DNA of 64,000 nt, taken from assembly GCA_046293175.1 (NCBI GenBank), contig JBKBPM010000002.1, positions 83,176 to 147,175 of the forward strand. Direction: 5' to 3'. Each line of letters begins with the position of its first letter. The stretch's first letter is position 1. Origin of the DNA: Minisyncoccia bacterium. GTDB taxonomy: Bacteria > Patescibacteriota > Minisyncoccia > Phycocordibacterales > UBA918. Shown here in pieces: positions 5,267 through 64,000 of the stretch. Under the pieces are notes generated by a model. That model worked only from the letters and a program-made list of their open reading frames with translations, was not told the DNA's origin and ran no database searches. The translations under genes were made by a program, and so were the position numbers.

Positions 5267-5268
5267 AA

Positions 5269-8843: not shown

Positions 8844-8851
8844 AGATAGAG

Positions 8852-43530: not shown

Positions 43531-45249
43531 ATGTCTACTCCTGTTCTTAAAAAAGTTCACACCTTTGCTGATGACCTAAACCTCGTTCGAAGCGAGCGTG
43601 GTATCACGACTAAAAAATCTGCGCCTGTAGCACAAAAAATGCCGACACCGGTTACTAGAGATCAAGTCACCGTTGCGACAGCTAGTGCCACTGGTCCGAA
43701 AAAGATCATCACGAATTCAAGTGCCACACTCAAACCTTCAGCGAATGATCTCCCGGCTACCATCATCACTGATCAGCGAAGTAAGCGCTTCAATTTGACT
43801 TCTGAAATGAGTTCTGCCATTGGTGAGTGGTGGAATAAAAAAGTGCAGTCAGTTAAAAAAACAAAGAAGAAGAACCTATACGGTCTCCCTGCCGCTGAGC
43901 GACGGAAAGGTGTCGTGACTGCTGCCACCACACACACCGGTCGTCACGTCGCCAGTGATTATCATGCGGTCGTAGAACGAGTAAAAACAAAACCAGAACC
44001 AGAACCCACAACTGTTGTTGAACGAGTTATGCCACCGCCAACAACCACCCCTTCAGTTGAGCCAGCTAGTGGTTGGGAGACGGCGAATGAAGCCGCTTTA
44101 AATACAGTATTGTCGATCCAAACCACAACAGAAACCTCAGGGTTTGTATCTCAAATGGAAGAGCCCCAAACCACAGGTGTAGTGGTAACAGATATAACCT
44201 ACCGCCAACCACGGATTGAACCAACTATACCTGAATATCCAATAGAGGAATCAAAACCCGAAGAGGAAGAACTATTGCAACCTACCATTGATGAAACAAA
44301 GTCAGTCATTTTTACAGAATTTCAAGAACCGGCAGTAACACCGATTACACCAACACCTCGTTCGTTTGAAAAAATTACTCCAACTTTACCAACCATAGCA
44401 ACCACCACTTCTACTTCGCCGAATGCCTTCACCATGATGAGTGAGGTACCAGCTCCAGTACTCCAGAACAAACCTGACTATGTAAAGACAACAATAGCGG
44501 CTCGTAAAGAAGCACTAGCCAGTACACCAACGACAACACCATCAAGACTGTTCACGCTTGCGCCTTATTTGGCAGGTGGAACTTTTGTATTTGTCACCGT
44601 TGGAACGATTGCTTATTTCATGATTGCAGGGACGAGTAGTGCTCCTGAAGTCATAACAGGGGACACCACCTTGCCAATCAATACGTTTGGCAACTCGGGT
44701 GATCAACTCCCCCTCACTACCACAGGTGGTGTCGTGACTGCTACTCTCGATGCACCAAACAAATCATCGCTCTACAAAGCAATATCTGAAACAGCAAATC
44801 AAGGTGAAGGTTTACAAATTGTCACACCACTTGCGCACGACTCCATTTTGCCACTCGGTAGTCGCGAAATCCTTAGCCTCCTCAACCGGCAATTTTCACC
44901 ATCCTTTATTGGCAGTGTCATACAAGTAAAACTCGGTATGTACCGAAACGAACCAGTTATAATTCTTTCGGTGAGTGACGGGGCAACTGCACGAGGGAGC
45001 ATGTTCTTGTGGGAGAACAGCATGAGTCAAGACCTCAGTCCTTGGTTTGGTATACCATTTACCAATAATGCATCCGGATCTAGTTCTCAATTCAAAGACA
45101 GTCAGATTGCTGGTTATGATGTACGCATCCTTAAAGATGATATCGGCACCGAACGAATTACGTATGGTATCATCGGACAATCAACTATCTTGATTACCAC
45201 TACCAGCACAGCTTTTCTTAACATCACTGAAAATTACAATCTGTTCTAG
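43531..45249 (+). CDS. Hypothetical Thr/Pro-rich membrane-anchored protein (572 aa)
   Basis: Central TM helix LAPYLAGGTFVFVTVGTIAYFMIAG; low-complexity T/P-rich N-terminal half. Confidence 0.45.
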   Translation: MSTPVLKKVHTFADDLNLVRSERGITTKKSAPVAQKMPTPVTRDQVTVATASATGPKKIITNSSATLKPSANDLPATIITDQRSKRFNLTSEMSSAIGEWWNKKVQSVKKTKKKNLYGLPAAERRKGVVTAATTHTGRHVASDYHAVVERVKTKPEPEPTTVVERVMPPPTTTPSVEPASGWETANEAALNTVLSIQTTTETSGFVSQMEEPQTTGVVVTDITYRQPRIEPTIPEYPIEESKPEEEELLQPTIDETKSVIFTEFQEPAVTPITPTPRSFEKITPTLPTIATTTSTSPNAFTMMSEVPAPVLQNKPDYVKTTIAARKEALASTPTTTPSRLFTLAPYLAGGTFVFVTVGTIAYFMIAGTSSAPEVITGDTTLPINTFGNSGDQLPLTTTGGVVTATLDAPNKSSLYKAISETANQGEGLQIVTPLAHDSILPLGSREILSLLNRQFSPSFIGSVIQVKLGMYRNEPVIILSVSDGATARGSMFLWENSMSQDLSPWFGIPFTNNASGSSSQFKDSQIAGYDVRILKDDIGTERITYGIIGQSTILITTTSTAFLNITENYNLF

Positions 45250-45657: not shown

Positions 45658-47181
45658 ATGTCTATCGCGCGCCTCTATACGGTTCAACCAACAGTGACCG
45701 GTGGGCATGTGATTTCTATTGAAGCTGATATTTCCCGTGGTCTCCATGCATTTTCAATCGTTGGACTAGCTGGGAAAGCAATAGAAGAAGCAAAAGATCG
45801 TGTTTCTGCTGCTATCAAATATAGTGGGTATCCGGCACCAAAATCACAAAATCACAAAATTGTGATGTCCTTAGCACCAGCCGACCTTAAGAAAGAAGGG
45901 CCACTGTTTGACCTCCCATTAGCACTGGCGTACCTCATTGCCCTTGATGAGATACTCATGGATGACACACGGCGTATTTTTGTTGGTGAACTTGGTCTTG
46001 ATGGGAGCCTTAAACCCATTCGTGGCGTCATTAATATGGTAAGTGCGGCCAAAGCAGCCGGTTTTAGTGAAATATTTGTACCGGCAGAAAATGCCCGTGA
46101 AGCGGCGTGTATTTCAGGAATCACCGTCTTTGGAGCTACGGACTTGGCGGCTGTTATTAGTCATGTAAATATCAAAAGTACCGAACGACACTATCTCACC
46201 GCAAAGCCACTCTCCACACTCGATGAGTCATGGACAGATACAGCGGTAAAACTTGAAGATATTAAAGGGCAAGAAAGTGCAAAGCGTGCCCTCCTCATTG
46301 CTGCCGCTGGGCGACATAATGTCATTATGGTTGGACCACCAGGAACTGGTAAAACCATGTTGGCACGAGCGTTTCAAAGTATTCTCCCACCACTCACCAG
46401 AGAAGAAGCTTTGGCAGTTGCCATGATTCGTTCGATTGCCGGCGAAACAACTGACCTTCTCACCACAAAGCCTCCGTTTCGTACCCCACACCATACCGCC
46501 TCACATACCGCGCTGGTTGGTGGTGGTACTAATCCGCGACCAGGAGAAGTAACCTTAGCCCATTTGGGCGTATTGTTTATGGATGAGTTTCCAGAATTCG
46601 ATCGACGGAGTATTGATGCACTACGTCAGCCACTTGAGGATCGGGTAGTAAGTATTTCTCGGGTGCAGGGTACCGCACTCTTTCCAGCTGATATCATACT
46701 CATAGCCGCTATGAACCCGTATCGAGGTAGTGAGGATGGAACTACCGATCTCGCACGGGCGATGCAGCAAACTTACAAAGATAAAATCTCTGGCCCGATC
46801 CTTGATCGTATTGATCTCTGGATTGAAGTACCCCATGTATCATACGAGACACTGGCAGGCAAAACACGTCACGACCACGAAACCAGAGATGCTCGTAGAC
46901 TCATCAAAGCAGCTCGCCTCCGGCAGGCCAATCGTCTGTCTGAGCGAGGTATTTCTACTAACGCCAGTATGACCAGTCGAGATATTGAAGATACAATTAC
47001 ATTAAATAGTGAGGTTGAGACATTACTCAAATCATCGGCCACCAAACTTAACCTGTCACCACGGAGTTACCATCGCTTGATTAAAGTGGCGCAAACTATT
47101 GCTGATATCGAAGGGGTGGAAACCATCAGTACAGATCATCTCCTTGAGGCATTGCAATACCGGGTCCGTCTAAGCATATAA
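45658..47181 (+). CDS. comM: YifB/ComM-family Mg-chelatase-like AAA+ ATPase
   Basis: Walker A VIMVGPPGTGKTM, Walker B LFMDEFPEF, an N-terminal Lon-like domain, 507 aa. Confidence 0.85.
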   Translation: MSIARLYTVQPTVTGGHVISIEADISRGLHAFSIVGLAGKAIEEAKDRVSAAIKYSGYPAPKSQNHKIVMSLAPADLKKEGPLFDLPLALAYLIALDEILMDDTRRIFVGELGLDGSLKPIRGVINMVSAAKAAGFSEIFVPAENAREAACISGITVFGATDLAAVISHVNIKSTERHYLTAKPLSTLDESWTDTAVKLEDIKGQESAKRALLIAAAGRHNVIMVGPPGTGKTMLARAFQSILPPLTREEALAVAMIRSIAGETTDLLTTKPPFRTPHHTASHTALVGGGTNPRPGEVTLAHLGVLFMDEFPEFDRRSIDALRQPLEDRVVSISRVQGTALFPADIILIAAMNPYRGSEDGTTDLARAMQQTYKDKISGPILDRIDLWIEVPHVSYETLAGKTRHDHETRDARRLIKAARLRQANRLSERGISTNASMTSRDIEDTITLNSEVETLLKSSATKLNLSPRSYHRLIKVAQTIADIEGVETISTDHLLEALQYRVRLSI

Positions 47182-47322: not shown

Positions 47323-48369
47323 TTAAAATGGATTGCGTCCTCCACGCACCTCAAAGTGTAAGTGTGGACCGGTTGATTTTCCGGTGTTTCCAAGTGCACC
47401 AATGGTTTCACCAGTGGCCACAACATCACCAACACCAACGGCATTACTTGAAAGGTGTGCGTAGAATGTTTGTGTACCGTTAGCATGTTTGATAACCACA
47501 TATTGACCATACCCACCATTCCAACCTGAACTCTTTGAGACAATTACCTCTCCACCTAAAGCTGCACGAACCGGAGAACCAACTGAACCACCGAAGTCAA
47601 CACCGTTATATCCATGAATACCCTGAGTTTTAATAGTGCCTGGTGCAGGATGTACGAAACTGCCTGTACCCTTACTGCCGCCACCTTTACTACTGATTGT
47701 TGGTTTCTTGGCTACAGTAGCATGAAGGGCGCCACCAGGCACAATAATAGTTTCACCAACAGTTAACACTGAACCTTTCTCAAGTTGATTGTATGAAGCC
47801 ACTTCATCAGTATTGGCTTCATACTTCTTGGCAATTGAGGCGATAGTGTCGCCTGACTTCACGACGTGACGAACGCCAGCAATCGGAAGAATAATCAGCG
47901 TGTCACCTGGTTTAATTGCTTTAGCGTTTGGCAAGTCATTAGCCCATAAAATAGTGTTAGCAGTTACATCGAACATCTCAGCAATCATTGAGAGAGAATC
48001 TCCTTCACGAACAGTATAGACACTGATTTCACCACTACTTTGCTTCTTTTCACTCAGTTCATCTTTACCAATCGGTCCTGAAGAAACTAAAGTTCCTTCA
48101 CTGACTATCACATCGGCACCACCTCGTGAGCTACTTGGATCTGGATTAGTGGCTGCAGCCAAAAGCGGGGTATCAAGCACTGTCGTCATAGTCACCACTT
48201 CTGGGGTGGATAGGGTACTGGTGGCATCAGTACCACCAAAAAACGGAAAAACACCTGCCTGAACAGAAAAAGGCACCACCACAATAAGGAGACCAACGAG
48301 TATTTCAAGCGAACGGCCAAGGGCCGATGGAGTATAGTATGACGTCACCGAACGGGCTACAGTTTGCAC
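47323..48369 (-). CDS. LysM-domain M23 family peptidoglycan metalloendopeptidase
   Basis: Two LysM repeats (YTVREGDSLSMIA..., VVKSGDTIASIAKKY...) and the M23 core GYGQYVVIKHANGTQTFYAHL...GPHLHFEV. Confidence 0.8.
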   Translation of the reverse strand: MQTVARSVTSYYTPSALGRSLEILVGLLIVVVPFSVQAGVFPFFGGTDATSTLSTPEVVTMTTVLDTPLLAAATNPDPSSSRGGADVIVSEGTLVSSGPIGKDELSEKKQSSGEISVYTVREGDSLSMIAEMFDVTANTILWANDLPNAKAIKPGDTLIILPIAGVRHVVKSGDTIASIAKKYEANTDEVASYNQLEKGSVLTVGETIIVPGGALHATVAKKPTISSKGGGSKGTGSFVHPAPGTIKTQGIHGYNGVDFGGSVGSPVRAALGGEVIVSKSSGWNGGYGQYVVIKHANGTQTFYAHLSSNAVGVGDVVATGETIGALGNTGKSTGPHLHFEVRGGRNPF

Positions 48370-50807: not shown

Positions 50808-51680
50808 TTGGATAATTTAAGGTTGCGAAACCTAAGTTTTACCGCTATGCTCACGGTAATGACTACTCGAGATGACGAGACTAAAGAAGGTTTTGCGCAC
50901 AAAAAGTCCTTGGGGCAGAATTTTTTGACGACCCCGGTGGTTCCGAATTGGATGTGTGAAGCCGGCGGGGTGACAGCAGGGGACATAATCATTGAAATTG
51001 GCCCCGGGACTGGTGCATTGACCCGGGCCTTGCTGCAACGTGGCGCTACTGTCTACGCTATTGAGACCGATGAACGGGCGGTGGCGGTTCTCAAAGAGAC
51101 ATTTGAGTCTGAAATTAGAGCCAGACAGCTATATCTTATATATGATGATGTGCGGACATTTGATTTTGGAACCCTCGGGGTAACTACAAAACCCTATAAA
51201 ATAGTGGCCAATATCCCATATTACCTCTCGGGTTTTCTCCTGCGACATTGTCTTGAACTACCAAAACCACCAACCACCCTGGTATTTTTGATGCAAAAAG
51301 AGGTGGTTGAACGTATTACGAGAGATAAAAAGAGCTCATTATTATCTTTGTCGGTTCTCGTCTACGGCATACCAAAGTATTTTAAGACCGTCTCTCGCGG
51401 CCATTTTAAGCCTGCACCAAACGTCGATTCAGCGATTCTCGCTATTCATAACATTTCTCATGTTGAACTACCGACAAAGTCTGATCGTGAAGCTTTTTTT
51501 ACCCTTCTCCATGCCGGCCTCGGGCAGCGCCGCAAGCAACTCCTTGGGACACTCACCAATCTTTATCCGCGTGACATCCTTGAACGTATCTTTACCGAAC
51601 TTAAGTTACCACTTACTGTTCGTGGTGAAGACTTACCAATCAAGACCTGGCTTGCCCTATTTCGTACACTACAACAGTAG
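50808..51680 (+). CDS. rsmA: 16S rRNA (adenine1518/1519-N6)-dimethyltransferase
   Basis: KSLGQNFL and IIEIGPGTGALTRAL (SAM motif I). Confidence 0.85.
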   Translation: MDNLRLRNLSFTAMLTVMTTRDDETKEGFAHKKSLGQNFLTTPVVPNWMCEAGGVTAGDIIIEIGPGTGALTRALLQRGATVYAIETDERAVAVLKETFESEIRARQLYLIYDDVRTFDFGTLGVTTKPYKIVANIPYYLSGFLLRHCLELPKPPTTLVFLMQKEVVERITRDKKSSLLSLSVLVYGIPKYFKTVSRGHFKPAPNVDSAILAIHNISHVELPTKSDREAFFTLLHAGLGQRRKQLLGTLTNLYPRDILERIFTELKLPLTVRGEDLPIKTWLALFRTLQQ

Positions 51681-52661: not shown

Positions 52662-54170
52662 ATGTCACTGTTACTTGCCAAAGCACGTTCACTTCTCATA
52701 GTCATTTTGATTGTGAGTATTGCCACTGTTGCCGTTCCCTATGATGATGCCCTCGCTGGAGGCGGTCTTAGTGGCGACTACTCAGAACGCACCGGTCAAC
52801 GCGCCTTACAACAACAACGAATTACAGCGGTACAAGGGACAGTGACTGCCGCGAATACCGGAGCAACCGCCTTGGCTACCGGGAACCTCTTCGTAAAGGA
52901 AAACCTCCTTGATGGTATCGCTTGGGCGGTCGCGAAGCAGATGGTGAGTAACATCACTCGCAGTCTCATCAATTGGATCAACTCTGGCTTCCAGGGTAGC
53001 CCTGCTTTTGTGACCGACTTCAAGCAGATGCTGCTTGATGCCCTTGATCAAGTAGCTGGTGAATATATTCGCAGCCTCGGTGGACTCGGAGAATTCATTT
53101 GTTCACCCTTCCAACTCGATGTCCAGGCCGCCCTGTCTATCAACTATGCCCAGGCCCGCAGCGGTAATCCGTCTGGTCCAAATGAAAACCTTTGTACCCT
53201 CACCGGTATTGCCTCGAATATTGAAAACTTCCTCTCCGGTACGGCCGACAACTGGGGGCAGTGGCTTGATGTGACGGCCAATCCGCAGAATACGCCATAT
53301 GGTGCCTACATTGCTGCTGAAGCTGCGCTTAACATCCGTCTTAGGAACGAAGCTGGGCAAGAAATTGAAGTGGCAAGGTGGGGTGACGGATTCCTCTCAA
53401 AAAAAGTCTGTCAGGCGATTGAAGGTACAACTCGTGAAGACTGTAAAATCACCACTCCTGGTCAAGTCATTAGTGAAGCACTAACCTTCCAGCTTTCAAC
53501 CGGTCCGCGCACCCTGATTGAAGCCGATGAAATAAACGAACTTATCGGGGCCCTCCTTAATCAATTAGTGTTACAAGTAGTCCAAGGACTCAATGGTCTG
53601 CTTGGTCTTAGTGAAAGTGGCTATGGCGGCGGTAGTGGGTCGTTCCTCGATGCGGTAGTAGACGAAGGCGCTAATTTAGTTGATTACACCCCGTACAAGC
53701 GTGAGATGGATGAAGCGCTCGCCCGTGAAATCAGCATGCTCACTTTAATTGATCGCGCCCTTGATTCTGCCTCAACTAGTGCTACAAGCACCTTATCGGC
53801 AGAGGAACAACGTGTTCTTAATGAAGCCACCAGTATTGTGAACCGCGTTTCAAATAACCTAGCGCAGCTTACCGTGCTGATTAACCGCTACAACGGCGCC
53901 TCAACCACGGCCGCAGCCCGAATCGCTTCTTCATCAGCTACCGCCACTACTACCGACAATCGTCCAACTAATGTACTTGGAAACCGCATCAGCACAGGTA
54001 CCGGAGGGGGCGGCAACCTCAATGCCGAAATCAATCGCATCCGCCAAGAAGTCGTCCTCGATTACCTAGCTCTCAAGAGTAGTGGTACCCTCACAACCCA
54101 AGCGTTTATTAATCAAAAGCGAACCGAGTGGCAAGCGGTTATATACCCATACGGAGAAGGACAGTTGTAG
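52662..54170 (+). CDS. Secreted hypothetical protein; first gene of the T4SS-like cluster
   Basis: Signal peptide LLIVILIVSIATVAVP, 502 aa, its start is 10 nt after the previous stop. Confidence 0.4.
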   Translation: MSLLLAKARSLLIVILIVSIATVAVPYDDALAGGGLSGDYSERTGQRALQQQRITAVQGTVTAANTGATALATGNLFVKENLLDGIAWAVAKQMVSNITRSLINWINSGFQGSPAFVTDFKQMLLDALDQVAGEYIRSLGGLGEFICSPFQLDVQAALSINYAQARSGNPSGPNENLCTLTGIASNIENFLSGTADNWGQWLDVTANPQNTPYGAYIAAEAALNIRLRNEAGQEIEVARWGDGFLSKKVCQAIEGTTREDCKITTPGQVISEALTFQLSTGPRTLIEADEINELIGALLNQLVLQVVQGLNGLLGLSESGYGGGSGSFLDAVVDEGANLVDYTPYKREMDEALAREISMLTLIDRALDSASTSATSTLSAEEQRVLNEATSIVNRVSNNLAQLTVLINRYNGASTTAAARIASSSATATTTDNRPTNVLGNRISTGTGGGGNLNAEINRIRQEVVLDYLALKSSGTLTTQAFINQKRTEWQAVIYPYGEGQL

Positions 54171-54324
54171 TTCTGTAGCATCACTCGCTACCGAGATCTA
54201 AAAATCGACAACACATCCGCGCCTACAGCGCGGATGTGTTGTAGTGTTTATTTGATTTAATTAATCACCACATTTTTGGTTTTTTCAAAAGACAGAGTGA
54301 ACACGACAATGGTATGATAGCGGT

Positions 54325-56652
54325 ATGTTGGAGGGAATGGTCCCGTGTTTCAGACGTGCGCTTGTGGTCGCGCTCATTCTCTGTGCCTTTTTTGTAACTA
54401 TACAATATGCACAAGCACAAGCAGTTACCCCCTCGCCAGTTGATGGGGAGGGAGGAGGGCTTAGTGGCGGTGGAGGTGGTGGAAGTATTCCAATCACTGG
54501 AGGACCATTTAATGGTCCTGGACCTGTCCCAAATGGTTCGATTAACCCGGTGACCGGCGCACCCATTAGTGGCAATGGTGCTAGTGGGGGAGGTGGAAAT
54601 GATGCTGGTGGATTTAATAATCCCGGGCAACAAACTACCCAAACCGTGGAAACTCCACCTATTATCGTCCAAGACGGCGCTAGTTGTTGGAGTTCACCAC
54701 AAGGTTTTTTCCACTGTATTGCCACAGCCTTTTTTGGAACATTTGTCGCTATTGCAGGTTATGCCTTTGATTGGTCAATTCAATTATTTATTACCCAGTT
54801 TGGGCAGATGTACCTTACCTACGGTGTCGGGGCAGTAGTTGAGGGAACTTGGGGTACGGTCCGTGATATCTTCAACCTAACCTTTATCTTTGGGCTCGTT
54901 TATATCGGATTCCAAATTATTCTTGGCGTAAACGAAAGTAGTGCTAAGCGCACCATTCCACTTCTCATTGTAGCCGCACTGCTCGTCAACTTCAGTCTTT
55001 TTATTGTGAAGTTTGTAGTTGATTTTGCCAACTTGGCTGCACTTCAAATTTATAACCTCTTTAGCGCTGCTAACACCCTCAATGCTGGTGGTGGACAAGC
55101 AAGTCCAGGCACCATTGTGGACATTTTAGGTGGTGATACACCGAGTATTGCTCTTGCATTTATCAATACTATAGGAGTCACCAGTCTTCTTAGTCATAAC
55201 CCAAGTGCCGGAGTGGCCGATGGCGTACCTCTCTTCTACACCTTTGGGATGATTGTGGTCTTTTTGGTCCTTATCTACGTATTTTTTGCGGCAGCTATCC
55301 TTATTACCATCCGCTTTGCGGCCCTGACGTTCTACATGATCTTTTCACCCATCATGTTCCTGGGGTGGGTCTTCCCGGGTATGAAGTCCTACAGTGACAA
55401 GTTCTGGAGCGGTCTTTTTGGACAAGCGTTTTTTGCTCCGGCCCTCCTTTTCATGTTGTATATCACATACCAACTCTCGGCTGGTTTGGCGGGTCCAAAT
55501 CGCGTTGACGGACGAGTATTCGAAAACCAAGCCAACGCCCTTGGCTTTGCCCAGTTCATTCCGTACCTAGTTCTCATTGTTGTCTTCCTCATGGCCTCAC
55601 TTATCGTCGCCAAAAAGATGGCGAACCAAGGTGCCAGTATGGTAGGGAAGGTCAATGACTGGGCAGTCAGCAAGGCTGGACTGGCCGCCGGTGGTATGAC
55701 TGCTGGACTTATGGCCCGAGCGGGACGAAATACTATCGGGGCTGCAGCCTACGGGATACAAAATAGTGAAGGTTTTAAAGAATTTGCAGCACGCAATGGT
55801 AGATTTGGTAAAATGATGTATTCCGGAGTTGGTAAAGTAGCTGACAGTAGCTTTGATGCGAGGAAAGTCGGTGGTGCTGGTAAATTAATGGGTGTTGGTG
55901 AGGGACGTAAAGGGGGAATTGCTACCATCACCAAGGACAACAAGGAATCTGATGAAAAATTTCTTAAAGCCATCGGTACGCGGGAGTGGACTAAGGGTAA
56001 GTTTGAGGATAGCGATGAAGGCATTAGGTTAAAATCAAACATTACGGCCATCGAACAAAGTATGGCAGGTGTTACAGACCAACAGAAACTTGACCAGATG
56101 AAAAGCGAACTGGTGGCCGCTACAAAAGCGTACGTTGCTGGTAGCAAAAAATGGGATTCAGAGGAATCACAACACATATATGGTCGTCAGCTTAGCTATA
56201 TTGAAAATATGGAACGCTGGCAAAAAGTCTATGGTGCTACTGCAAAAGCAGCTGGTGTAGCTAGTGCTGGTATTATTGCTGGTGTAGCCACTGGTGGATT
56301 AGGTTGGGCAGCAGCTGCTGGTGCTGGTGTAGCCGCTGGAGGCAGCACCTATGCAGCAGGTAAAAGTACTTGGTATAAATCTCGAAATGAAGCGGCTGCA
56401 CTTCGTAAAGATTATGGTGCTGATGGAAGTAAGAAGAAGAAAGCTGATCAAAAGAAAAAGGCTCAAGAAGAAGCTGCCGCAGCCCTTGGGCTTAAAAAGG
56501 AAGAAGAAGATCATGGTAAAAAAGATAAGGTGAAGGAGGATCATGGTAAAAAAGATGATCATCACTCAACACCTAAAGCAGCTGCTTCAGCACCAAAAGC
56601 GGCACCAAGTGGTGGTGGAGGCGGTCATAATAATCATGGTGGTGGCCATTAA
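54325..56652 (+). CDS. VirB6/TrbL-like polytopic T4SS membrane protein (putative)
   Basis: Signal peptide, Gly-rich linker, six or more TM helices, lysine-rich low-complexity C-terminal tail; sits next to the PrgI-like and VirB4 genes. Confidence 0.45.
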   Translation: MLEGMVPCFRRALVVALILCAFFVTIQYAQAQAVTPSPVDGEGGGLSGGGGGGSIPITGGPFNGPGPVPNGSINPVTGAPISGNGASGGGGNDAGGFNNPGQQTTQTVETPPIIVQDGASCWSSPQGFFHCIATAFFGTFVAIAGYAFDWSIQLFITQFGQMYLTYGVGAVVEGTWGTVRDIFNLTFIFGLVYIGFQIILGVNESSAKRTIPLLIVAALLVNFSLFIVKFVVDFANLAALQIYNLFSAANTLNAGGGQASPGTIVDILGGDTPSIALAFINTIGVTSLLSHNPSAGVADGVPLFYTFGMIVVFLVLIYVFFAAAILITIRFAALTFYMIFSPIMFLGWVFPGMKSYSDKFWSGLFGQAFFAPALLFMLYITYQLSAGLAGPNRVDGRVFENQANALGFAQFIPYLVLIVVFLMASLIVAKKMANQGASMVGKVNDWAVSKAGLAAGGMTAGLMARAGRNTIGAAAYGIQNSEGFKEFAARNGRFGKMMYSGVGKVADSSFDARKVGGAGKLMGVGEGRKGGIATITKDNKESDEKFLKAIGTREWTKGKFEDSDEGIRLKSNITAIEQSMAGVTDQQKLDQMKSELVAATKAYVAGSKKWDSEESQHIYGRQLSYIENMERWQKVYGATAKAAGVASAGIIAGVATGGLGWAAAAGAGVAAGGSTYAAGKSTWYKSRNEAAALRKDYGADGSKKKKADQKKKAQEEAAAALGLKKEEEDHGKKDKVKEDHGKKDDHHSTPKAAASAPKAAPSGGGGGHNNHGGGH

Positions 56653-56657
56653 AAAAT

Positions 56658-57614
56658 ATGTCGATAGAACTCATCAACAACCGCATAACATCGTTTACTC
56701 CTGAATACCGTGATTTTGTCATGAGTGACTTTAGTGATGTGGTTGCAGCGAAGATTGCTCAGAAAGAAAGCTTCGACGAAGATACCGAAACCGCCATCGC
56801 TAACATGATCTTTTTGTACACCATTCTGATCTTGAGTGACTACGAACTCACCGAAGCACTAGTGGCTGACTGCGGACTTGGGATGAATGAAGCCCTTCGT
56901 ATCACCAAGTCAATCCTCTCGACGATGCCGCCGGAGATGCTCGAAGCACAGCGTGATGCCTATGCCGAACTTATGAAAAGCGACAATCCGATTGATGAAA
57001 AGATCCGTCGCGATATTATTGCTGCCCAACCAGAACGACAAAAGCTTGTCTACCTATATACCAAAACCAATCCTCACCTCCGAGTACTTCTTGAACAATT
57101 TGCACTACCGGAAGAACAGGTAGAAGCCGGTATCATGCTCCTTGGTGATATCATCCTCGGTTTTTATCGAACTGAAGATACCGTACCACTCCTCCAGCAA
57201 GAACTCGGACTTGATCCAAAGACGGCAGCACTACTAGGAGCTGAAGTGCTCGAATTTTTGACGAGTATCACCGACCCCAACTGGCAACCACCGACTGATG
57301 CCCCTCGGATACAAGAAACACCCACTAATCAAGTACCCCTTAAAGCACCAGCCGGATTTACCACACCTACTCCTCTGGTCGTTGAACCATCTGCGGTTGT
57401 TGAACCAACTCCCGTCTACCAGCCAGCTCCAGTAGGGTATATGAGTACACCGACTCCTAATCCAACTCCTATTTACCAATCCACCCAACCAACACCGGCT
57501 CCAGTTCCACTCTCAACTATTCCAAGCTACACCCCAGCGCCAACCCCACCGACTCCTCCAGCACCAGCTCCGGCTCCGGCTCCCGATCGACCACGATGGA
57601 GCACGGAAATTTAA
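56658..57614 (+). CDS. Hypothetical protein with a Pro/Thr-rich C-terminus
   Basis: 318 aa, tightly coupled (5-nt gap) to the upstream gene. Confidence 0.4.
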   Translation: MSIELINNRITSFTPEYRDFVMSDFSDVVAAKIAQKESFDEDTETAIANMIFLYTILILSDYELTEALVADCGLGMNEALRITKSILSTMPPEMLEAQRDAYAELMKSDNPIDEKIRRDIIAAQPERQKLVYLYTKTNPHLRVLLEQFALPEEQVEAGIMLLGDIILGFYRTEDTVPLLQQELGLDPKTAALLGAEVLEFLTSITDPNWQPPTDAPRIQETPTNQVPLKAPAGFTTPTPLVVEPSAVVEPTPVYQPAPVGYMSTPTPNPTPIYQSTQPTPAPVPLSTIPSYTPAPTPPTPPAPAPAPAPDRPRWSTEI

Positions 57615-57728
57615 CCCATGAGAAGTTGCTGAGAAACAGCTAATACCAACTTTAGTATGAGTAATACCATCTATAGTTGTACAACTTTTGGTGTGACTTC
57701 TAACGGGGTGAATGTATAATAGACAGGT

Positions 57729-58142
57729 ATGCAGTTTGAAGTCCCACAGTTTATTGAAATCGAGGACAAAATCTTTGGTCCACTCACCTGGCGACAATTT
57801 CTCTATGTTGGTGGGGGAGGACTGATGGCTGTCGTACTCTTTTTAACCACACCCATCTTTGTCTTCTTGCTCCTTGGACTCCCAATTGGGATTGTCGCTT
57901 TTCTCCTCGCGTTTTATCCAGTGAATAACCGACCATTTTCACACCTCCTTGAAGCTATGTGGACATTTCTCACTCGTTCACGGGTGTACCATTGGCAGCG
58001 GAAGCAGGAAGTGATATATAAAGACGCACAACCAGTTTACGATGGTAGTGACAACCCCGCGCTTAGTGACACTCTCATGGGCAAAAAAGATATTGCCTCC
58101 TTAGCGCGGCGCCTCGAACTCGACGCAATGCAAAAAAAGTAA
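57729..58142 (+). CDS. PrgI-family (VirB3-like) T4SS membrane protein
   Basis: IEIEDKIFGPLTWRQFLYVGGGGLMAVVLFL followed by a second TM helix; about 137 aa. Confidence 0.55.
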   Translation: MQFEVPQFIEIEDKIFGPLTWRQFLYVGGGGLMAVVLFLTTPIFVFLLLGLPIGIVAFLLAFYPVNNRPFSHLLEAMWTFLTRSRVYHWQRKQEVIYKDAQPVYDGSDNPALSDTLMGKKDIASLARRLELDAMQKK

Positions 58143-58145
58143 TCC

Positions 58146-58769
58146 ATGGCTTCTTCTACTTCATCAACCCAAGATTTCGTACCAATCCGTGACGTCAAAA
58201 ACGGCGTGGTTTTTTTGAAAAATGGGCAACTGTGCAAAATCCTCCTCGCATCGTCTATCAACTTTGCGCTTAAATCCCGCGACGAGCAGCAAGCGATTCT
58301 GTTCCAGTTCCAAAACTTCCTTAATACGCTTGATTTTTCTCTCCAAATCTATGTGCAGTCACGTCGCCTTAATATCGAGCCATACCTTGCCACCTTGAAG
58401 TCTCTCGAGAGTATCCAGTACAGCGACCTTATGCGTGTACAGCTCCGCGAATACATCGAATTCATTCGCACCTTCACGACTGAAGTAGACGTGATGAGTA
58501 AAAACTTCTTTGTCGTGATTCCATACACCCCGCCAAAACTCGATTTTAAGAAGAGCTTCACCACTATCCTCTCCCAAGGGCGGGCGGTTGAAACCAATAC
58601 CCAAGACGAGCAACGACTCCAGCTCGAGCAGCGTCAGACTGTGGTGGAGCAGGGACTTAACCGTATTGGTGTGCGTACAATCGCACTGCAGGATGAAGAA
58701 CTGGTCGAATTATTTTATCACATTTATAATCCAAGTGATGTCACGGGCAGTGCACCAATGCGCCAATAA
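58146..58769 (+). CDS. VirB4/TrbE-family ATPase, N-terminal domain, encoded as a separate ORF
   Basis: DFVPIRDVKNGVVFLKNGQLCKILLAS... ; the stop TAA lies 2 nt before the next ATG (TAATTATG). Confidence 0.55.
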   Translation: MASSTSSTQDFVPIRDVKNGVVFLKNGQLCKILLASSINFALKSRDEQQAILFQFQNFLNTLDFSLQIYVQSRRLNIEPYLATLKSLESIQYSDLMRVQLREYIEFIRTFTTEVDVMSKNFFVVIPYTPPKLDFKKSFTTILSQGRAVETNTQDEQRLQLEQRQTVVEQGLNRIGVRTIALQDEELVELFYHIYNPSDVTGSAPMRQ

Positions 58770-58771
58770 TT

Positions 58772-60565
58772 ATGGGTATTTTTGATAACTTCAAACCAAA
58801 AAAAGAAGAAAACAATGTCGATATGAGCGACAGCCTGTTAACTCTAACCGACGTCGTTGCACCATCAGCCATTTCAATTACGCCTCGAAGCATTAATATC
58901 AGTGGTACGATGGCTCGAGTTTTTTATGCGGTGTCCTATCCGCGATACCTCACCGATGGGTGGCTCGAACCGGTTCTTAATATGGAGAAGGAGCTTGATG
59001 TATCTATCGTCATCCATCCAATTAACACTGCCGAAACACTCAAAAAATTCCAAAAGAAAGTGGCTGAAGTGCAAAGCCAAATCAACATGCGGGCTTCACG
59101 TGGGGAAGTACGTGACCCTCAACTTGAAGCGGCGTACCGAAACCTCGAGGATCTCCGTGACAAGCTTCAGCAGGCTGAAGAAAAGCTTTTTGATGTGGGA
59201 CTCTACGTGGCAATCTACGGAGAAAATGAAACCGTCCTCAACAAAGTAGAGAATGAAATCAAAGGTAGTCTTGATTCGCGTCTCATTTATATCAAACCAG
59301 CCCTCTTTAAACAGGAGCAGGGGATTCACAGTATTGTACCAACCGCCACTGACGAGCTCCTTGTCCATAGCAAGTTTAATTCCTCACCACTCTCTAGTTT
59401 CTTTCCGTTTACCTCCTTTGACCTTACTTCAGACAACGGTATCCTCTATGGTATCAACCGCCACAATTCGTCTTTGGTGCTCTTTGACCGCTTTAGTCTC
59501 ACGAACTACAACTCAGTAACTTTTGCTACCTCCGGGGCAGGGAAGTCCTACAGTATCAAACTTGAAATTCTTCGTTCACTGATGTTTGGATCAGAAGTAA
59601 TTGTGATCGACCCGGAGCGTGAGTATGAGTATTTGGCCGAAGCTACCGGTGGTCGGTTTTTCAATATCTCACTCTCCTCAAACCACCACATTAACCCGTT
59701 TGACCTCCCACCACCAGGGGCGGACGAGAACCCAGCTGATGTACTACGGTCCCAGGTAGTGCACCTCATCGGCTTATTCCGGTTAATGCTCGGAGGGTTG
59801 TCTCCTGAAGAGGAAACGATTATTGACCTCGCCATCCGAGAGACCTACGCCCTTAAGGACATCACTGAGCAAATCAACTTTGCTGACCTCGAACCACCAC
59901 TCTTGTCTGACTTTGAGATGGTGCTGGCTGGTATGAATGGCTCAGCATCACTGATTGCTCGTCTCCAGAAGTATACCTCTGGTACCTGGTCTGGCTTCAT
60001 GAACCAGCCGACCAACGTCGATATCAACCAAAAGTTCATTGTGTTTAGTCTCCGTGACATGGAAGATGAACTCAAGACCATCGCGATGTTCATCATCACG
60101 AACTTTATTTGGTCAGCGATTCGTCGTCGTCTCGTGAAGCGCCTTCTCGTTATCGACGAAGCTTGGTGGATGATGAAAAGTGAAGATACGGCCTCCTTCC
60201 TCTTTAGTCTCGCAAAGCGCGGACGAAAATACTACCTCGGTATTGCAACGATTACCCAAGACGTAGACGACTTCCTTCGCTCACCGTACGGCGTCCCAAT
60301 GATTACGAACTCATCGCTACAATTTTTGATGAAGCAATCACCAACCGCTATCGATAACATTCAGCGGACCTTTAACCTCACTGACGAAGAAAAGTACCTC
60401 CTCCTTGAGTCAGACGTCGGGGAAGGGCTCTTCTTCGTAGGTCTCAAACATGTCGCTATTAAAGTGATTGCCTCGTACACTGAAGACCAAATCATTACCT
60501 CTGATCCGTCACAGATTTTGAAAATTCAAAATGCAAAACGTGAGCTCGCAGATCGTGAGTTGTAA
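58772..60565 (+). CDS. VirB4/TrbE/CagE-family T4SS ATPase (C-terminal ATPase domain)
   Basis: Walker A ATSGAGKSYS, Walker B LLVIDEAWWMM, 597 aa. Confidence 0.85.
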   Translation: MGIFDNFKPKKEENNVDMSDSLLTLTDVVAPSAISITPRSINISGTMARVFYAVSYPRYLTDGWLEPVLNMEKELDVSIVIHPINTAETLKKFQKKVAEVQSQINMRASRGEVRDPQLEAAYRNLEDLRDKLQQAEEKLFDVGLYVAIYGENETVLNKVENEIKGSLDSRLIYIKPALFKQEQGIHSIVPTATDELLVHSKFNSSPLSSFFPFTSFDLTSDNGILYGINRHNSSLVLFDRFSLTNYNSVTFATSGAGKSYSIKLEILRSLMFGSEVIVIDPEREYEYLAEATGGRFFNISLSSNHHINPFDLPPPGADENPADVLRSQVVHLIGLFRLMLGGLSPEEETIIDLAIRETYALKDITEQINFADLEPPLLSDFEMVLAGMNGSASLIARLQKYTSGTWSGFMNQPTNVDINQKFIVFSLRDMEDELKTIAMFIITNFIWSAIRRRLVKRLLVIDEAWWMMKSEDTASFLFSLAKRGRKYYLGIATITQDVDDFLRSPYGVPMITNSSLQFLMKQSPTAIDNIQRTFNLTDEEKYLLLESDVGEGLFFVGLKHVAIKVIASYTEDQIITSDPSQILKIQNAKRELADREL

Positions 60566-60591
60566 TTCACGGATTGTAGTATACTGTCCGT

Positions 60592-61368
60592 ATGGCGACT
60601 AAAGGCTACACCGACTACGAGCCAGTAAATGGTGCATATCCGGGTGTTTCCGGTGATTTCATAAATGAACAGCATAGCCGCCGGGGTTTTGGTGTGCAAA
60701 ACGTCAAAGCTGTAGCTAATGAAGCTACTCGCACATCAACCTCCAAGACTCTTCGCTATGTTGGTGATCGAGCCCAATCATATGGTAGATACCTCCAAGA
60801 CCGTAGTGACGAGCTCGAAGAACTACCTGTTGCCGGTAAAACAATGGCAAAAGCCAGGCGGCAAGCGGGACGGTTTATTGAACGAAGTGGCAAAGCCTCA
60901 AAGTTGACCTCTCGCTCACTCCTCACCGGCCGAGGGCGTACTGTCAGCACCGCCACCGGACGGGTTCAGGTTACCTTTGCGATGGGTTGGACGGGACTTC
61001 TGAACATTCTTTCACTTCCAGTTGGTATCATGGCACTTGCTGCTTTTGGTGGCGCCGCATTGGTAGCCGACACAACCGTTGGAGATATTGTTACTCTAGT
61101 AGTGTATTGGATGCTTGGACTTGAGTATTTTAATGTGTGGGTACTTGGTATTGGTCTCTATGTCCTCCATGCTTTTCTTATTATTACGATGTTTGCGGGG
61201 TCTTACATGCAACTAAAGTTGGGTGGGCTTGAACCCCTTGGTGGGCAAGCTACAGTAGCCAAAAATCTTACGTTTATTGGTGCTTTTGTTGTCTCCGCCA
61301 TACCTGGAACCACCTTTGTGCCCTGGATTTTTGCTTGGCTACTGATTGTCTGGTTATATCCCAACTAA
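60592..61368 (+). CDS. Hypothetical polytopic membrane protein
   Basis: Four C-terminal TM helices. Confidence 0.4.
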   Translation: MATKGYTDYEPVNGAYPGVSGDFINEQHSRRGFGVQNVKAVANEATRTSTSKTLRYVGDRAQSYGRYLQDRSDELEELPVAGKTMAKARRQAGRFIERSGKASKLTSRSLLTGRGRTVSTATGRVQVTFAMGWTGLLNILSLPVGIMALAAFGGAALVADTTVGDIVTLVVYWMLGLEYFNVWVLGIGLYVLHAFLIITMFAGSYMQLKLGGLEPLGGQATVAKNLTFIGAFVVSAIPGTTFVPWIFAWLLIVWLYPN

Positions 61369-61407
61369 TCTCTAAGTAGTAGGAGAGCATCTGATACAAT
61401 ATCTAGT

Positions 61408-62382
61408 ATGAAGTATCTCGTCTTCGTTACTCTCTTTTTTGTGAGTATTGTCGGGCAGGCAAACGCTCAATTTGATACAGGTTTTGTTGACCAAACCAGT
61501 GGTATCTCTGTGAGTCTTAGTCCCACTTACCCGGCACCAGGGGAGCGTGTGACAGCCACACTCGATGACTACGCAATTGGATCAGCGTTTAGCACTATTA
61601 CCTGGTTTCTCAATGGTACCGAAGTATCCGTTGCAAAAAATAGCCGTATGATGACTTTTGTGGCCCCAGCATTGGGTGAAAAACTCACCATTACTGTCAA
61701 ACTTACCTTACCGAGCGGCCTAACTATCGAAGCTAGTCAGTCAATTACTCCACTCTACACCGATGTTATTGTCGAACCACAGACCTACATACCGCGACAG
61801 TACCAGGGTCGCGCTCTTCCGAGTATTGGTAGTCTCGTACGAGCCACCGCGTTGGTGCAAGACGAGAATGGCTTTATCAATCCAGCTCTCCACTCGTATG
61901 TATGGAAACTTAATGGGACTGCGGTTGGTGGTGGCGGTCGCAATAACGGATTTCAAGTTGAATACGTTGTTCCCTACGGCCGCAACCACACCCTCACAGT
62001 TGAAGTGTACGACCGTACTGGACAGATGCTGACCCGCCGCGGCACGAACATTCAAACTGAGGATGTCGATTTGGTTTTGTATGAGGTCAATCCATTGTAT
62101 GGCAAGAGCAATATCGCAATTGGTGGACAACTCCAGTTCTTGTCTAACACACTTCAATTGCGCGCAGTACCTTACAACCTTGACCTTAGGTCGACTCCGC
62201 AAAATACCTTCTCGGAATGGCGTCTTGGTAATCGTGCCGTCGCTAGTGATACCACTAGTCCATTTGACCTAACACTTGAACGGACTGGCCAAGGTAAAAT
62301 ACCGGTCAATTTCAAGCTCCGTAATCGCGACGCTCTCCTCCAGGGCGGGGAAGTAAGTACTAGTCTCAATTTTGGTCTATGA
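61408..62382 (+). CDS. Secreted hypothetical protein
   Basis: Signal peptide MKYLVFVTLFFVSIVGQANAQ; its TGA stop overlaps the next start (ATGA). Confidence 0.4.
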   Translation: MKYLVFVTLFFVSIVGQANAQFDTGFVDQTSGISVSLSPTYPAPGERVTATLDDYAIGSAFSTITWFLNGTEVSVAKNSRMMTFVAPALGEKLTITVKLTLPSGLTIEASQSITPLYTDVIVEPQTYIPRQYQGRALPSIGSLVRATALVQDENGFINPALHSYVWKLNGTAVGGGGRNNGFQVEYVVPYGRNHTLTVEVYDRTGQMLTRRGTNIQTEDVDLVLYEVNPLYGKSNIAIGGQLQFLSNTLQLRAVPYNLDLRSTPQNTFSEWRLGNRAVASDTTSPFDLTLERTGQGKIPVNFKLRNRDALLQGGEVSTSLNFGL

Positions 62383-63539
62383 AACGTACGTATTTTTTCA
62401 TCGCTGGAGGAGTAATTATTTGTATACTCGTTGGTTTTTGGGTGTATAGCTTTTTATACGGGTCTCCAACGAATGATGGCTCAATTTTCACCAACCTTGG
62501 TATCTTTGGTCAAAATAACACCGAAGAAATCTACACCCCACCAGTGTCTGACGAACTTCCTACTGTTGATGTAAACACCGAAAAACTGCGTCAATTGACC
62601 ACCAAGCCCGTGATTGGAGCAAGGATTTTGGAAAAAAACGGGGTATTCCTCATCCGGTATGTTGAAGCTGGTACAGGGCACGTTTTTGATATTGACCTCG
62701 TGTCAGGTCAAGAGGTACGCGTCTCCCAAATCTCCGTGCCAGCAGCTGAAAAGGCAGCGGTTAGTCCAAACGGGAGCTATGTCGCAATTCGATCAGGATT
62801 GGGAAATGAAGGTCTTGTAACACTAATAAATCTCTCTGATACTACTAATCCGTCGAGTACAAATTTACCAAATCAAATGCGCACTTTTGCTTTTGGGTAT
62901 AACAATGAACTTCTTTTTACCGAAACTTCACTTGGACAAACAGAAGGGAAGGGCTATCTCCCGAGTACCGCCACAACCAGACGTCTCTTCACCGCTCCTT
63001 TTGTAGCCCACGAAATGGCTTGGAGTGAAAGTAGTACCACCAACCACATCATCTATACAAAGCCAGCAGCAAGTCAGATTGGCTACGCGTATGAGGTATC
63101 CGCCAGTGGCCTCAAACGTTTTCCATACAGTGGTTTTGGGATGACCATTAGCCAAAGTGGGGGAGTACGTTTTGTTGGTCGTATTATGGATGATGGTTAT
63201 CGGGCTGTTGTGATTAATGGAGCAGGCCAAATGAGTGAATCACCAGCCGCTTTAATTCCTGAAAAATGTGTCGCCGGTAATACCGGACGTGTAAGTCAAT
63301 TCTGTGCTAGTCCGTTTGAGCTCACAGAGCGTAATTTCCCTGATGCGTGGTACAAGGGGCAGTTTGTGAGTAATGATAATATTTGGGAAATTAATGGTAG
63401 CACGGCCACACTACTCGCTTTTCCAAGTCGCACAGTAGGAAGAAATCTCGACATTATTGATCTTCGTCTCAGTCAAGATGGGCGGATGATATACTTTATA
63501 AACCGTATTGATAACACACTCTGGCTTTATGAAATATAG
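62379..63539 (+). CDS. Membrane-anchored hypothetical protein (possible beta-propeller ectodomain)
   Basis: N-terminal TM helix FFIAGGVIICILVGFWVYSFL. Confidence 0.4.
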   Translation: MKRTYFFIAGGVIICILVGFWVYSFLYGSPTNDGSIFTNLGIFGQNNTEEIYTPPVSDELPTVDVNTEKLRQLTTKPVIGARILEKNGVFLIRYVEAGTGHVFDIDLVSGQEVRVSQISVPAAEKAAVSPNGSYVAIRSGLGNEGLVTLINLSDTTNPSSTNLPNQMRTFAFGYNNELLFTETSLGQTEGKGYLPSTATTRRLFTAPFVAHEMAWSESSTTNHIIYTKPAASQIGYAYEVSASGLKRFPYSGFGMTISQSGGVRFVGRIMDDGYRAVVINGAGQMSESPAALIPEKCVAGNTGRVSQFCASPFELTERNFPDAWYKGQFVSNDNIWEINGSTATLLAFPSRTVGRNLDIIDLRLSQDGRMIYFINRIDNTLWLYEI

Positions 63540-64000
63540 TCTCCTAGCAATTCTTTCGCTCTTGACCCTACCAGTAATTGCTTTGGCTGGAGGTAGTGAA
63601 GGTTATGTTCCACTGGTTGGTATTCCTGGCCTTACTGGTCAACCCAGATTTGATGATTATATTGATGCTCTGTATGCACTCGCTATCAGTGTGGCCGCAC
63701 TTATTGCGGTGATTCAAATTGTGATTGGTGGAGCGCAGTACATGATGGATGACCTCATTACAAGTAAAAGTGCTGCTAAAGAACGTATCAAAAACGCCCT
63801 CATTGGTCTCCTCATCATCATTGCCGCGGCTCTTATCCTTACGACTATTAATAGTGACCTGACTCGACTTGAAATCAGTGCACCGGTGATTGAAGTTGAT
63901 AATAGTAGACCAGACCCAGTTGAGGCTATCAATCGTGCAGAACAAGCAATCACTCGTAACACACAATGGGTTGAGAGTAATTGTCCATCATATGGAGGTG
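63528..64000 (+). CDS. VirB2/TrbC-like pilin-like protein, partial (runs off the window end)
   Basis: My own translation: MKYSLLAILSLLTLPVIALAGG...ALYALAISVAALIAVIQIVIGGAQYMM...IKNALIGLLIIIAAALILTTI, a signal peptide plus two hydrophobic helices. Confidence 0.4.

Follow-up and report, generated by a model that had tools for sequence, protein, structure and literature searches.

Near the end of a contig of a Minisyncoccia bacterium (GenBank assembly GCA_046293175.1, contig JBKBPM010000002.1), a row of genes resembling a type IV secretion system (T4SS) encodes the ATPase VirB4 in two adjoining open reading frames (ORFs). Is this VirB4 a genuine pair of proteins or one broken gene, and what would the machine around it do? 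The window, which here means the whole 64,000-nt stretch of DNA that was analysed, carries the cluster on its + strand at 51.7-64.0 kb, from the gene of the 299-aa protein p299 through the window end. The region is very probably a chromosomally fixed T4SS of a Paceibacteria-class bacterium from the candidate phyla radiation (CPR, or Patescibacteria), derived from the mating-pair-formation class MPF-FATA, with no relaxase or coupling ATPase nearby and with a VirB4 motor made of two polypeptides. Such systems matter in these bacteria because they are widespread, kept in tiny genomes, located beside the replication origin and, in the one species tested, essential for epibiotic growth.

Read directly from the sequence, all ORFs of the initial annotation lie where it had placed them, and the two VirB4 ORFs are indeed in different frames. 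The cluster range that it gave, 52662-64000, does contain the genes named, but p299, which is syntenic with the cluster in many relatives, lies outside it. The order on the + strand is p299, p502, p775, p318, a 137-aa PrgI/VirB3-like protein, a 207-aa TrsD-like protein, the 597-aa VirB4 ATPase, p258, p324, p386 and a pilin-domain ORF. Apart from spacers of 154 nt (p502/p775) and 114 nt (p318/prgI), the row is compact. Homology to T4SSs was borne out by hidden Markov models, with matches to PF12666, P-loop_TraG/AAA_10/DUF87, PF18895 and NF045971. As relatives, 80 loci were compared, each from a different GTDB species, together with contigs from exact-protein look-ups. Statistics on the junction of the two virB4 genes refer to 81 non-redundant species-level loci or, where both genes were needed, to 84 loci, the three extra ones being near-identical contigs. 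The order common to the relatives is uvrD, ksgA, p299, p502, p775, (p318), PrgI, TrsD-like, VirB4, (p258), p324, p386 and pilin, with the last two genes sometimes reversed.

At the junction, which reads CAA TAA tt ATG GGT, the stop codon of the 207-aa ORF is separated by 2 nt from the start of the 597-aa ORF. A stop codon ends the TrsD-like ORF in 81/81 species-level loci (TAA in 62, TAG in 15 and TGA in 4), and virB4 then starts with ATG GG(N) in almost all of them. The relative frame of the two genes is 0 in 21 loci, +1 in 39 and +2 in 24, out of the 84 with both. Among the relatives, the spacer between them can be as short as 1 nt and as long as 486 nt, the median being 5 nt. Of the 81 loci, 43 have a spacer of 0-5 nt, 24 one of 6-20 nt, 5 one of 21-100 nt and 9 one of more than 100 nt. 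In a collection of 5.8 billion proteins, 7239 homologues of the 207-aa protein were found, the best 120 of which are all 206-210 aa long. The best 120 homologues of the ATPase measure 580-609 aa, and the close ones share an N-terminus beginning with MG. When only 50%-identity representatives are considered, 2239 match the 207-aa protein; among the best 150, 149 stand alone and one is fused. An independent Logan assembly shows the identical two-gene arrangement. Judged by these comparisons, the VirB4 split is ancient and has been kept by selection, and of the two options that the initial annotation had offered, a genuine two-subunit VirB4 or a frameshift, the first is the one that holds.

The frameshift option would mean that an indel introduced in sequencing or assembly, or else an inactivating frameshift of recent date, has broken what is really one virB4 gene for a protein of about 800 aa. 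The frame of the 597-aa ORF contains stops up to about 58738 and is then open for about 30 nt ahead of its ATG, so a single indel could join the two closely spaced ORFs, and one fused homologue does exist. An error in this genome would, however, not be repeated in the independent Logan contig, nor would it explain the stop in every relative, the three relative frames, the widely varying spacers, the thousands of stand-alone homologues of about 207 aa or the length of about 600 aa of all close ATPase homologues. The chance that the split is an artefact is practically nil. A second alternative is that programmed frameshifting or stop-codon readthrough joins both ORFs into a functional fused VirB4. 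The two ORFs adjoin with hardly any sequence between them, and in the 21/84 loci with a shared frame readthrough would yield a fusion. Nevertheless, there is no conserved slippery sequence and no fixed frame relation among the loci, the shift needed being 0, +1 or +2; the identity of the stop codon varies; the spacer exceeds 20 nt in 14/81 loci; virB4 has its own conserved start after the stop; and the two-gene arrangement of the staphylococcal plasmid pSK41 is annotated as separate proteins. Because all three relative frames occur and both stops and spacers vary, a frameshift, whether erroneous or programmed, is ruled out, and recoding in general is considered highly improbable. Annotation of such genomes must leave the two-ORF VirB4 as it is, neither "repairing" it nor marking it as a pseudogene.

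How the two products divide VirB4 between them can be read from the model of the CD1110-family VirB4 (NF045971, 752 positions), in which the 207-aa protein occupies positions 2-169 and the 597-aa protein positions 178-733, without overlap. The fused homologue P0144 (797 aa) is colinear with both, its residues 1-212 aligning to the 207-aa protein and residues 229-791 to the 597-aa protein. Based on these alignments, the two products are complementary, non-overlapping parts of one canonical VirB4. A duplication of the N-terminal part instead of a fission was also considered and is ruled out, since no model position is matched by both ORFs and since their products line up one after the other along the fused homologue. 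P0144 itself (L087:544-2937; GCA_964615945.1, contig CAZTUR010000004.1) is the sole fused TrsD-VirB4 among the best 150 representatives. Its context is the usual one, with PrgI, VirB4 and then yidC, rnpA, dnaA and dnaN, and it could be a true re-fusion, the ancestral form or the result of an assembly error that deleted the stop.

The 597-aa protein reaches 360.1 bits with the CD1110-family model, above the cutoff of 325. It also matches the Pfam families P-loop_TraG (PF19044, 8.8e-26), AAA_10 and DUF87, and carries a Walker A motif (SGAGKS, residues 254-259) and a Walker B motif (LLVIDE, residues 458-463). In the CD1110 family, the N-terminal ~170 residues are on the same polypeptide, whereas here they lie on the 207-aa ORF. 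A weak, below-cutoff match to TraC_F_IV was found at positions 275-349 of 375. Since this match is present and the CD1110 match begins at position 178, the distal part of the N-terminal region is still on the 597-aa protein, and the break is placed by the profiles after about 170-200 VirB4 residues. The initial annotation, which had described a split into an N-terminal and an ATPase domain, was thus right about the two genes but not about the position of the break, which does not fall between the domains.

The 207-aa protein in turn is matched by N-terminal regions of four VirB4 models in NCBIfam, among them VirB4_plasma, the VirB4 of Mycoplasma integrative and conjugative elements (ICEs), at positions 100-260 of 894 (3e-9), TIGR00929 VirB4_CagE at 3-172 of 792 (4e-7) and the CD1110 family (4.5e-6). 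TrsD (NF041427) is matched over its full length (13-200 of 201) with an E-value of 2.1e-5 and 24.4 bits, below the cutoff of 200. For homologues of the 207-aa protein, the precomputed domain annotation is PF26593 (TraC-like). An AlphaFold model of the protein has a predicted local distance difference test score (pLDDT) of 91.9. According to a Foldseek search of the PDB with this model, the top 14 hits are all TrwK/VirB4 of R388 (probability 1.0, TMq 0.54-0.63), the only chains that are significant fold neighbours. When the sequence profile of the TrsD-like family was compared with PDB sequences, nothing was found at E-values up to 1. For the 207-aa protein, the predicted fold is that of the N-terminal part of VirB4, and the gene lies directly between the VirB3-like gene and the N-terminally short virB4, as trsD does in pSK41.

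The chromosomal setting bears on the function. Directly upstream of the cluster lies ksgA (50808-51680). The sequence 3' of the window end was read from an identical Logan contig (L001) and from relatives that are 94-95% identical. In these relatives and in more distant ones, the pilin gene is followed by yidC, rnpA, (rpmH), dnaA and dnaN, and DnaA is encoded at most 10 kb from the cluster in 62 of the relatives' loci. The remainder of the window is ordinary chromosome, with pgk, tpiA, nusA, trigger factor, clpP, RNase Y, PNPase, uvrD and ksgA, and Rfam matches in the window comprise four tRNAs and nothing else. Base composition is uniform, the GC content of the cluster being the same as that of the rest of the window. 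Pfam scans of the remaining window, which covered 37 ORFs with 150 aa or more, revealed no relaxase, coupling ATPase or integrase, as the initial annotation had said for relaxase and coupling protein and in agreement with published accounts (PMC12102498, PMC10633639). A tblastn search with pSK41 TraK, Nes and MobV, which as single distant queries have low sensitivity, gave no match in the window or in the 81 loci (±10 kb); downstream of the cluster, the relatives have yidC-rnpA-dnaA instead of a VirD4 or relaxase gene. The combination that marks a conjugative MPF-FATA system (relaxase, VirD4/TcpA and oriT on a mobile element) was not seen within the window or within ±10 kb in the relatives. 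A mobile element was rejected, as the chromosomal gene order is fixed and mobility genes are lacking in these regions.

It could still be argued that the genes form an integrated conjugative element's mating-pair-formation module, which transfers DNA with a relaxase and coupling protein encoded elsewhere. The model that the VirB4 matches is that of the CD1110-family ATPases of conjugal transfer, the machinery from which the system descends served conjugation in monoderms, and Patescibacterial genomes often have VirD4-like genes at other places (PMC12102498). However, the cluster occupies the same chromosomal place, from ksgA to yidC-rnpA-dnaA, in dozens of species, unlike mobile elements; its GC content does not set it apart, and no integrase, relaxase or coupling protein was found in the window or in the ±10-kb flanks. 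In addition, relaxases occur in only 103 Patescibacterial genomes, and in Ca. Southlakia epibionticum the t4cp homologue is non-essential while the T4SS is essential (PMC12102498). Conjugation is therefore a very unlikely function of this locus, and a T4SS fixed in the chromosome is the preferred reading.

As for the mechanism of this fixed T4SS, it is known that in the inner-membrane complex of R388 the N-terminal domain of VirB4 contacts VirB3 and the membrane platform. By analogy with that covalent domain, the TrsD-like protein may dock on the PrgI/VirB3-like and VirB6-like membrane proteins and recruit the ATPase hexamer. The short spacer would allow translational coupling and near-equal amounts of both proteins. 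The assembled machine may build a VirB2-like surface structure and/or export host-interaction proteins rather than move DNA. Wang et al. (2023, PMC10633639) report that Ca. S. epibionticum cannot grow as an epibiont without its T4SS cluster, in which no coupling protein or relaxase is recognizable and some of whose essential genes encode pilins. Since this homologous cluster is essential, a role in host interaction rather than conjugation is favoured, which is what the initial annotation had suggested and what the literature supports (PMC12102498, PMC10633639). Another possibility is that the machine works inwards like the archaeal Ced system and takes up DNA or other macromolecules of the host instead of exporting proteins. 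CPR bacteria depend on acquiring nucleotides, which they are unable to make, no effector is known, and the 597-aa ATPase has a weak match to CedB (NF041017; 8.9e-10 over ~70 residues). However, this match covers the generic P-loop region only and, at 37.8 bits, is far below the cutoff of 700. In S. epibionticum, moreover, ComEC competence is dispensable while the T4SS is essential and has been read as an exporter or as an "alternative capacity" (PMC10633639; PMC12857230). Import is accordingly judged improbable.

Several points weigh against the proposed T4SS with a two-polypeptide motor. The search for a relaxase or coupling protein spanned only the 64-kb window and ±10 kb in the relatives, and VirD4-like genes are, as mentioned, common elsewhere in these genomes. 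The association of the two polypeptides, their stoichiometry and the substrate are matters that we infer. By eye, the junction shows nothing like a Shine-Dalgarno sequence ahead of the virB4 ATG, and the coupling mechanism is therefore conjectural. The assignment of a VirB6-like protein (p775, see below) rests on its orthologues and not on the protein of the window itself. Finally, although the 207-aa protein would work like TrsD, it is not established whether it is an ortholog of the staphylococcal protein or arose by a separate fission at the same linker, because its score is below the TrsD cutoff and its matches to fused VirB4 families, at their N-termini, are no worse.

Table 1. Features of the T4SS cluster and of a second, pilus-like cluster in the window.
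Feature	Position	Strand	Basis or description
p299, one N-terminal hydrophobic segment	51752..52651	+	TM-like (transmembrane-like) residues 9-28; weak below-cutoff SdrD_B match
p502, anchored or secreted	52662..54170	+	N-terminal hydrophobic residues 1-32
15-bp perfect GC-rich hairpin with U-rich tail	54208..54242	+	terminator scan; in the p502/p775 spacer, the largest in the cluster
p775, VirB6/TrbL-like polytopic protein (likely)	54325..56652	+	signal-like N-terminus; 5 or more hydrophobic segments within residues 127-434
p318, soluble, Pro-rich C-terminus	56658..57614	+	no TM segment, no family match
137-aa PrgI/VirB3-like small membrane protein	57729..58142	+	PF12666
207-aa TrsD-like protein, free-standing VirB4 N-terminal module	58146..58769	+	NCBIfam, fold, colinearity with P0144
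Junction TAAttATG	58767..58774	+	TrsD-like stop (58767-58769), 2 nt, virB4 ATG at 58772
597-aa VirB4 ATPase, without the first ~170-200 residues of canonical VirB4	58772..60565	+	NF045971, PF19044
p258, soluble N-terminal half, 3-4 C-terminal TM segments	60592..61368	+	hydrophobic residues 133-160, 179-205, 226-255
p324, secreted or anchored, Ig-like repeats (provisional)	61408..62382	+	N-terminal signal-like segment
p386, membrane-anchored, TolB-like beta-propeller (provisional)	62379..63539	+	N-terminal TM residues 2-30
VirB2-like T4SS_pilin-domain protein, cut by the window end	63529..64000	+	PF18895
474-aa ORF of the pilus-like cluster	3842-5266	-	no Pfam match
N-terminal methylation motif protein	5269-5901	-	motif
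N-terminal methylation motif protein	5891-7648	-	also CarboxypepD_reg and SpaA-like domains
PilC-type platform protein	7611-8843	-	T2SSF
PilB-type ATPase	8852-10630	-	T2SSE, MshEN

The membrane and envelope partners of the motor differ in how firmly they can be assigned (Table 1). The PrgI/VirB3-like protein named in the initial annotation is clear, with an E-value of 4.7e-12 and 46.7 bits against a cutoff of 27, and has a hydrophobic hairpin at residues 24-66; its gene lies upstream of the TrsD-like gene in 77/80 loci, 76 of them with complete ORFs. The VirB6/TrbL-like protein proposed alongside it, p775, is indeed polytopic, and 12/59 of its orthologues match TrbL/VirB6 (PF04610, best E-value 2e-8), but p775 of the window has no Pfam match itself. 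The family profile of p775 aligns with TraL of pSK41 (TrbL family) over 58 columns only (hhalign probability 64.6%, E-value 6e-5) and reaches TrwI/VirB6 in the PDB at an E-value of 0.41 only; it has no similarity to the membrane protein TraF of pSK41. The C-terminal tail of p775 is long, hydrophilic and rich in Lys/Glu and Gly/His. On the whole, a VirB6-like role of p775 is likely from its topology and its orthologues.

No significant Pfam or NCBIfam match was obtained for p299, p502, p318 or p258. Between ksgA and the p502 gene, p299 is found in 36/80 loci (21-67% identity, 35 complete ORFs) and is probably the first gene of the cluster, while p502 has orthologues at the same position in 51 loci. 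p318 is poorly conserved, with only about 10 loci found by tblastn. p258 evolves fast and is likewise found by tblastn in few loci, though a gap of similar size is still kept between virB4 and the next gene. For p324, orthologues are present in 74 loci, a W..NG motif occurs three times in the alignment, and the family profile finds the Ig-like protein Hoc of phage T4 in the PDB (1e-5). Orthologues of p386 are present in 69 loci, and their profile matches TolB beta-propeller chains (6e-5 to 8e-4). Both fold assignments, Ig-like for p324 and TolB-like for p386, are provisional. Since each of them has one N-terminal hydrophobic segment, p299, p502, p324 and p386 are predicted to be extracytoplasmic.

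The VirB2-like pilin ORF that the initial annotation had placed at the window end does match the pilin domain PF18895, with its start corrected to 63529. The complete protein, as found on the identical Logan contig (L001:11151-12332), has 393 aa and is thus not of the size of a typical small pilin. Against a cutoff of 26.6, the domain scores 30.7 bits in the fragment and 28.3 bits in the full-length protein. A signal peptide and a two-helix hairpin (hydrophobic residues 1-24, 43-73 and 85-112) are followed by a Cys-rich C-terminal extension of about 280 aa, for which no family match was found. Orthologues retain the PF18895 domain with lengths of 122-614 aa. In one of the relatives' loci (L056:11873-13717), an ORF with the pilin domain, extended mechanically, appears also to carry a VanY D-Ala-D-Ala carboxypeptidase domain.

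A bolder proposal has two separate parts. The fission of VirB4 would be a functional innovation and not a neutral split of the gene: the free TrsD-like module, as a dissociable adaptor seated on the PrgI/VirB3-like and VirB6-like proteins, would recruit or release the ATPase ring and so give the essential CPR machine an on/off step in assembly. The pilin-domain protein, with its variable C-terminal extension, might for its part show enzymatic or adhesive domains outside on a T4SS filament. Taken together, this is speculative and rather unlikely. If it were true, the breakpoint also found in pSK41/pGO1 would reflect either common descent, which would tie the CPR to one Gram-positive conjugation subclass, or convergent fission.

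Two gaps in the fixed T4SS cluster may hold cis-acting elements. The spacer 54171-54324 between p502 and p775 folds as RNA with a minimum free energy of -48.5 kcal/mol (z -4.69), and 0/200 shuffles fold as well; the hairpin within it looks terminator- or attenuator-like. Promoter-like sites were seen at 54289-54318, after the hairpin, and at 57693-57720 (10/12 match), before prgI. The counts in the promoter and terminator scans were not above shuffled expectation, and only the placement of the hairpin and of the site at 57693-57720 in the two real intergenic gaps is suggestive. The hairpin and the promoter-like sites hint at transcription in two or three units or at an attenuator.

Other genes of the window were noted in passing. 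Just upstream of uvrD, a protein with LysM and Peptidase_M23 domains is encoded on the - strand (47323-48369), with the same gene in the same place in one relative (L005). A tblastn search finds this gene in 11 loci, most of the fetched flanks being too short to show conservation. In Paceibacteria, VirB1-type matches with M23/LysM domains have been associated with virB4 (PMC12102498), and by this analogy the protein may be a cell-wall hydrolase serving the T4SS. At 3842-10630, the - strand carries a cluster resembling a type IV pilus or type II secretion system (T2SS). In Saccharibacteria, type IV pili and T4SSs have both been reported as essential to the epibiotic lifestyle. Amid housekeeping genes, an antitoxin-like protein with HTH_3 and SocA/Panacea domains is encoded at 39214-39912 (+), and a 572-aa ORF without Pfam match at 43531-45249 (+) has PNPase (41301-43427) on one side and a ComM/Mg-chelatase-like ATPase (45658-47181) on the other.

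How does the locus compare with known systems? According to Quiñonero-Coronel et al. (2025, PMC12102498), whose survey includes Paceibacteria, the VirB4 proteins of Patescibacteria form a distinct clade related to MPF-FATA. In the same study, homologues of TrsD are the most abundant T4SS component of Patescibacteria, with 2,272 found and 1,664 of them adjoining virB4. Alongside PrgI/VirB3, VirB6 and pilins that are PF18895 or VirB2-like, relaxases are rare, and the T4SS is often located near dnaA, dnaN, rnpA, rpmH and ksgA. A 2025 review repeats this account (PMC12857230). The present locus agrees with this clade (PMC12102498), and with SEML1_0006-0019 of Ca. Southlakia epibionticum (PMC10633639), in its set of components, its location between ksgA and dnaA and the absence of a nearby relaxase or coupling protein. 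It differs from the loci of Saccharimonadia and Microgenomatia, which have arrays of 2-11 short pilins, whereas only one pilin-domain gene is found here, its product having a long Cys-rich extension. The accessory genes p299, p502, p324 and p386 are not named in the text of PMC12102498. A comparison with Saccharibacteria, as first suggested, leads to the same published system, but the close homologues of the 207-aa and 597-aa proteins are all from Paceibacteria, Kaiserbacteria, Nomurabacteria or Patescibacteria metagenome-assembled genomes (MAGs), and the organism is accordingly of the Paceibacteria/Kaiserbacteria type and no member of the Saccharibacteria. Many third-party MAGs in ENA titled "uncultured Candidatus Saccharibacteria bacterium" (L007, L009, L011, L012 and others) carry a locus that is 68-94% identical and fully syntenic with those of Kaiserbacteria, Paceibacteria and Nomurabacteria; these titles look like taxonomic mislabels.

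The closest counterpart of the two-gene arrangement is in pSK41/pGO1 (MPF-FATA, pGO1 subclass), where trsC (135 aa, VirB3-like), trsD (227 aa) and trsE/traE (672 aa) follow each other in the same order as here, with a trsD/trsE spacer of 14 nt in pSK41 compared with 2 nt here. The family profile of the 207-aa protein aligns with TrsD of pSK41 over 172 columns (hhalign probability 76.6%, E-value 2.2e-5), a marginal similarity at 18% identity. The 597-aa protein matches TrsE/TraE with a BLASTP E-value of 2e-35, the N-termini being aligned at residues 7 and 6, respectively. Since TrsD aligns over its full length and the N-termini of TrsE and the 597-aa protein coincide, the breakpoint is the same in pSK41 and here. 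As a conjugative plasmid, pSK41 also encodes a VirD4-like TraK, a relaxase, a topoisomerase and a single-stranded DNA-binding protein, unlike the chromosomal cluster of this study. Among curated families, that of the VirB4 of CTn2-type ICEs (CD1110 family) gives the 597-aa protein its highest score; in this conjugative system both parts are found in one polypeptide of about 750 aa, where two genes are found here. In R388 TrwK/VirB4 (PDB 7O43, 8RTB and 8RTD), the counterpart of the fold predicted for the 207-aa protein is a stretch of about 206-225 columns, presumably the N-terminal region, at an identity of 14-17%. R388 is a diderm MPF-T system with a single-chain VirB4 and with outer-membrane core components, which are absent here. 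Altogether, the locus is an ordinary member, typical of Paceibacteria, of a system that is already known from the literature and from thousands of genomes. What is added to it here is only detail, namely the exact complementarity of the two VirB4 proteins, the breakpoint in common with pSK41, the rare fused form and the fold hints for two accessory proteins.

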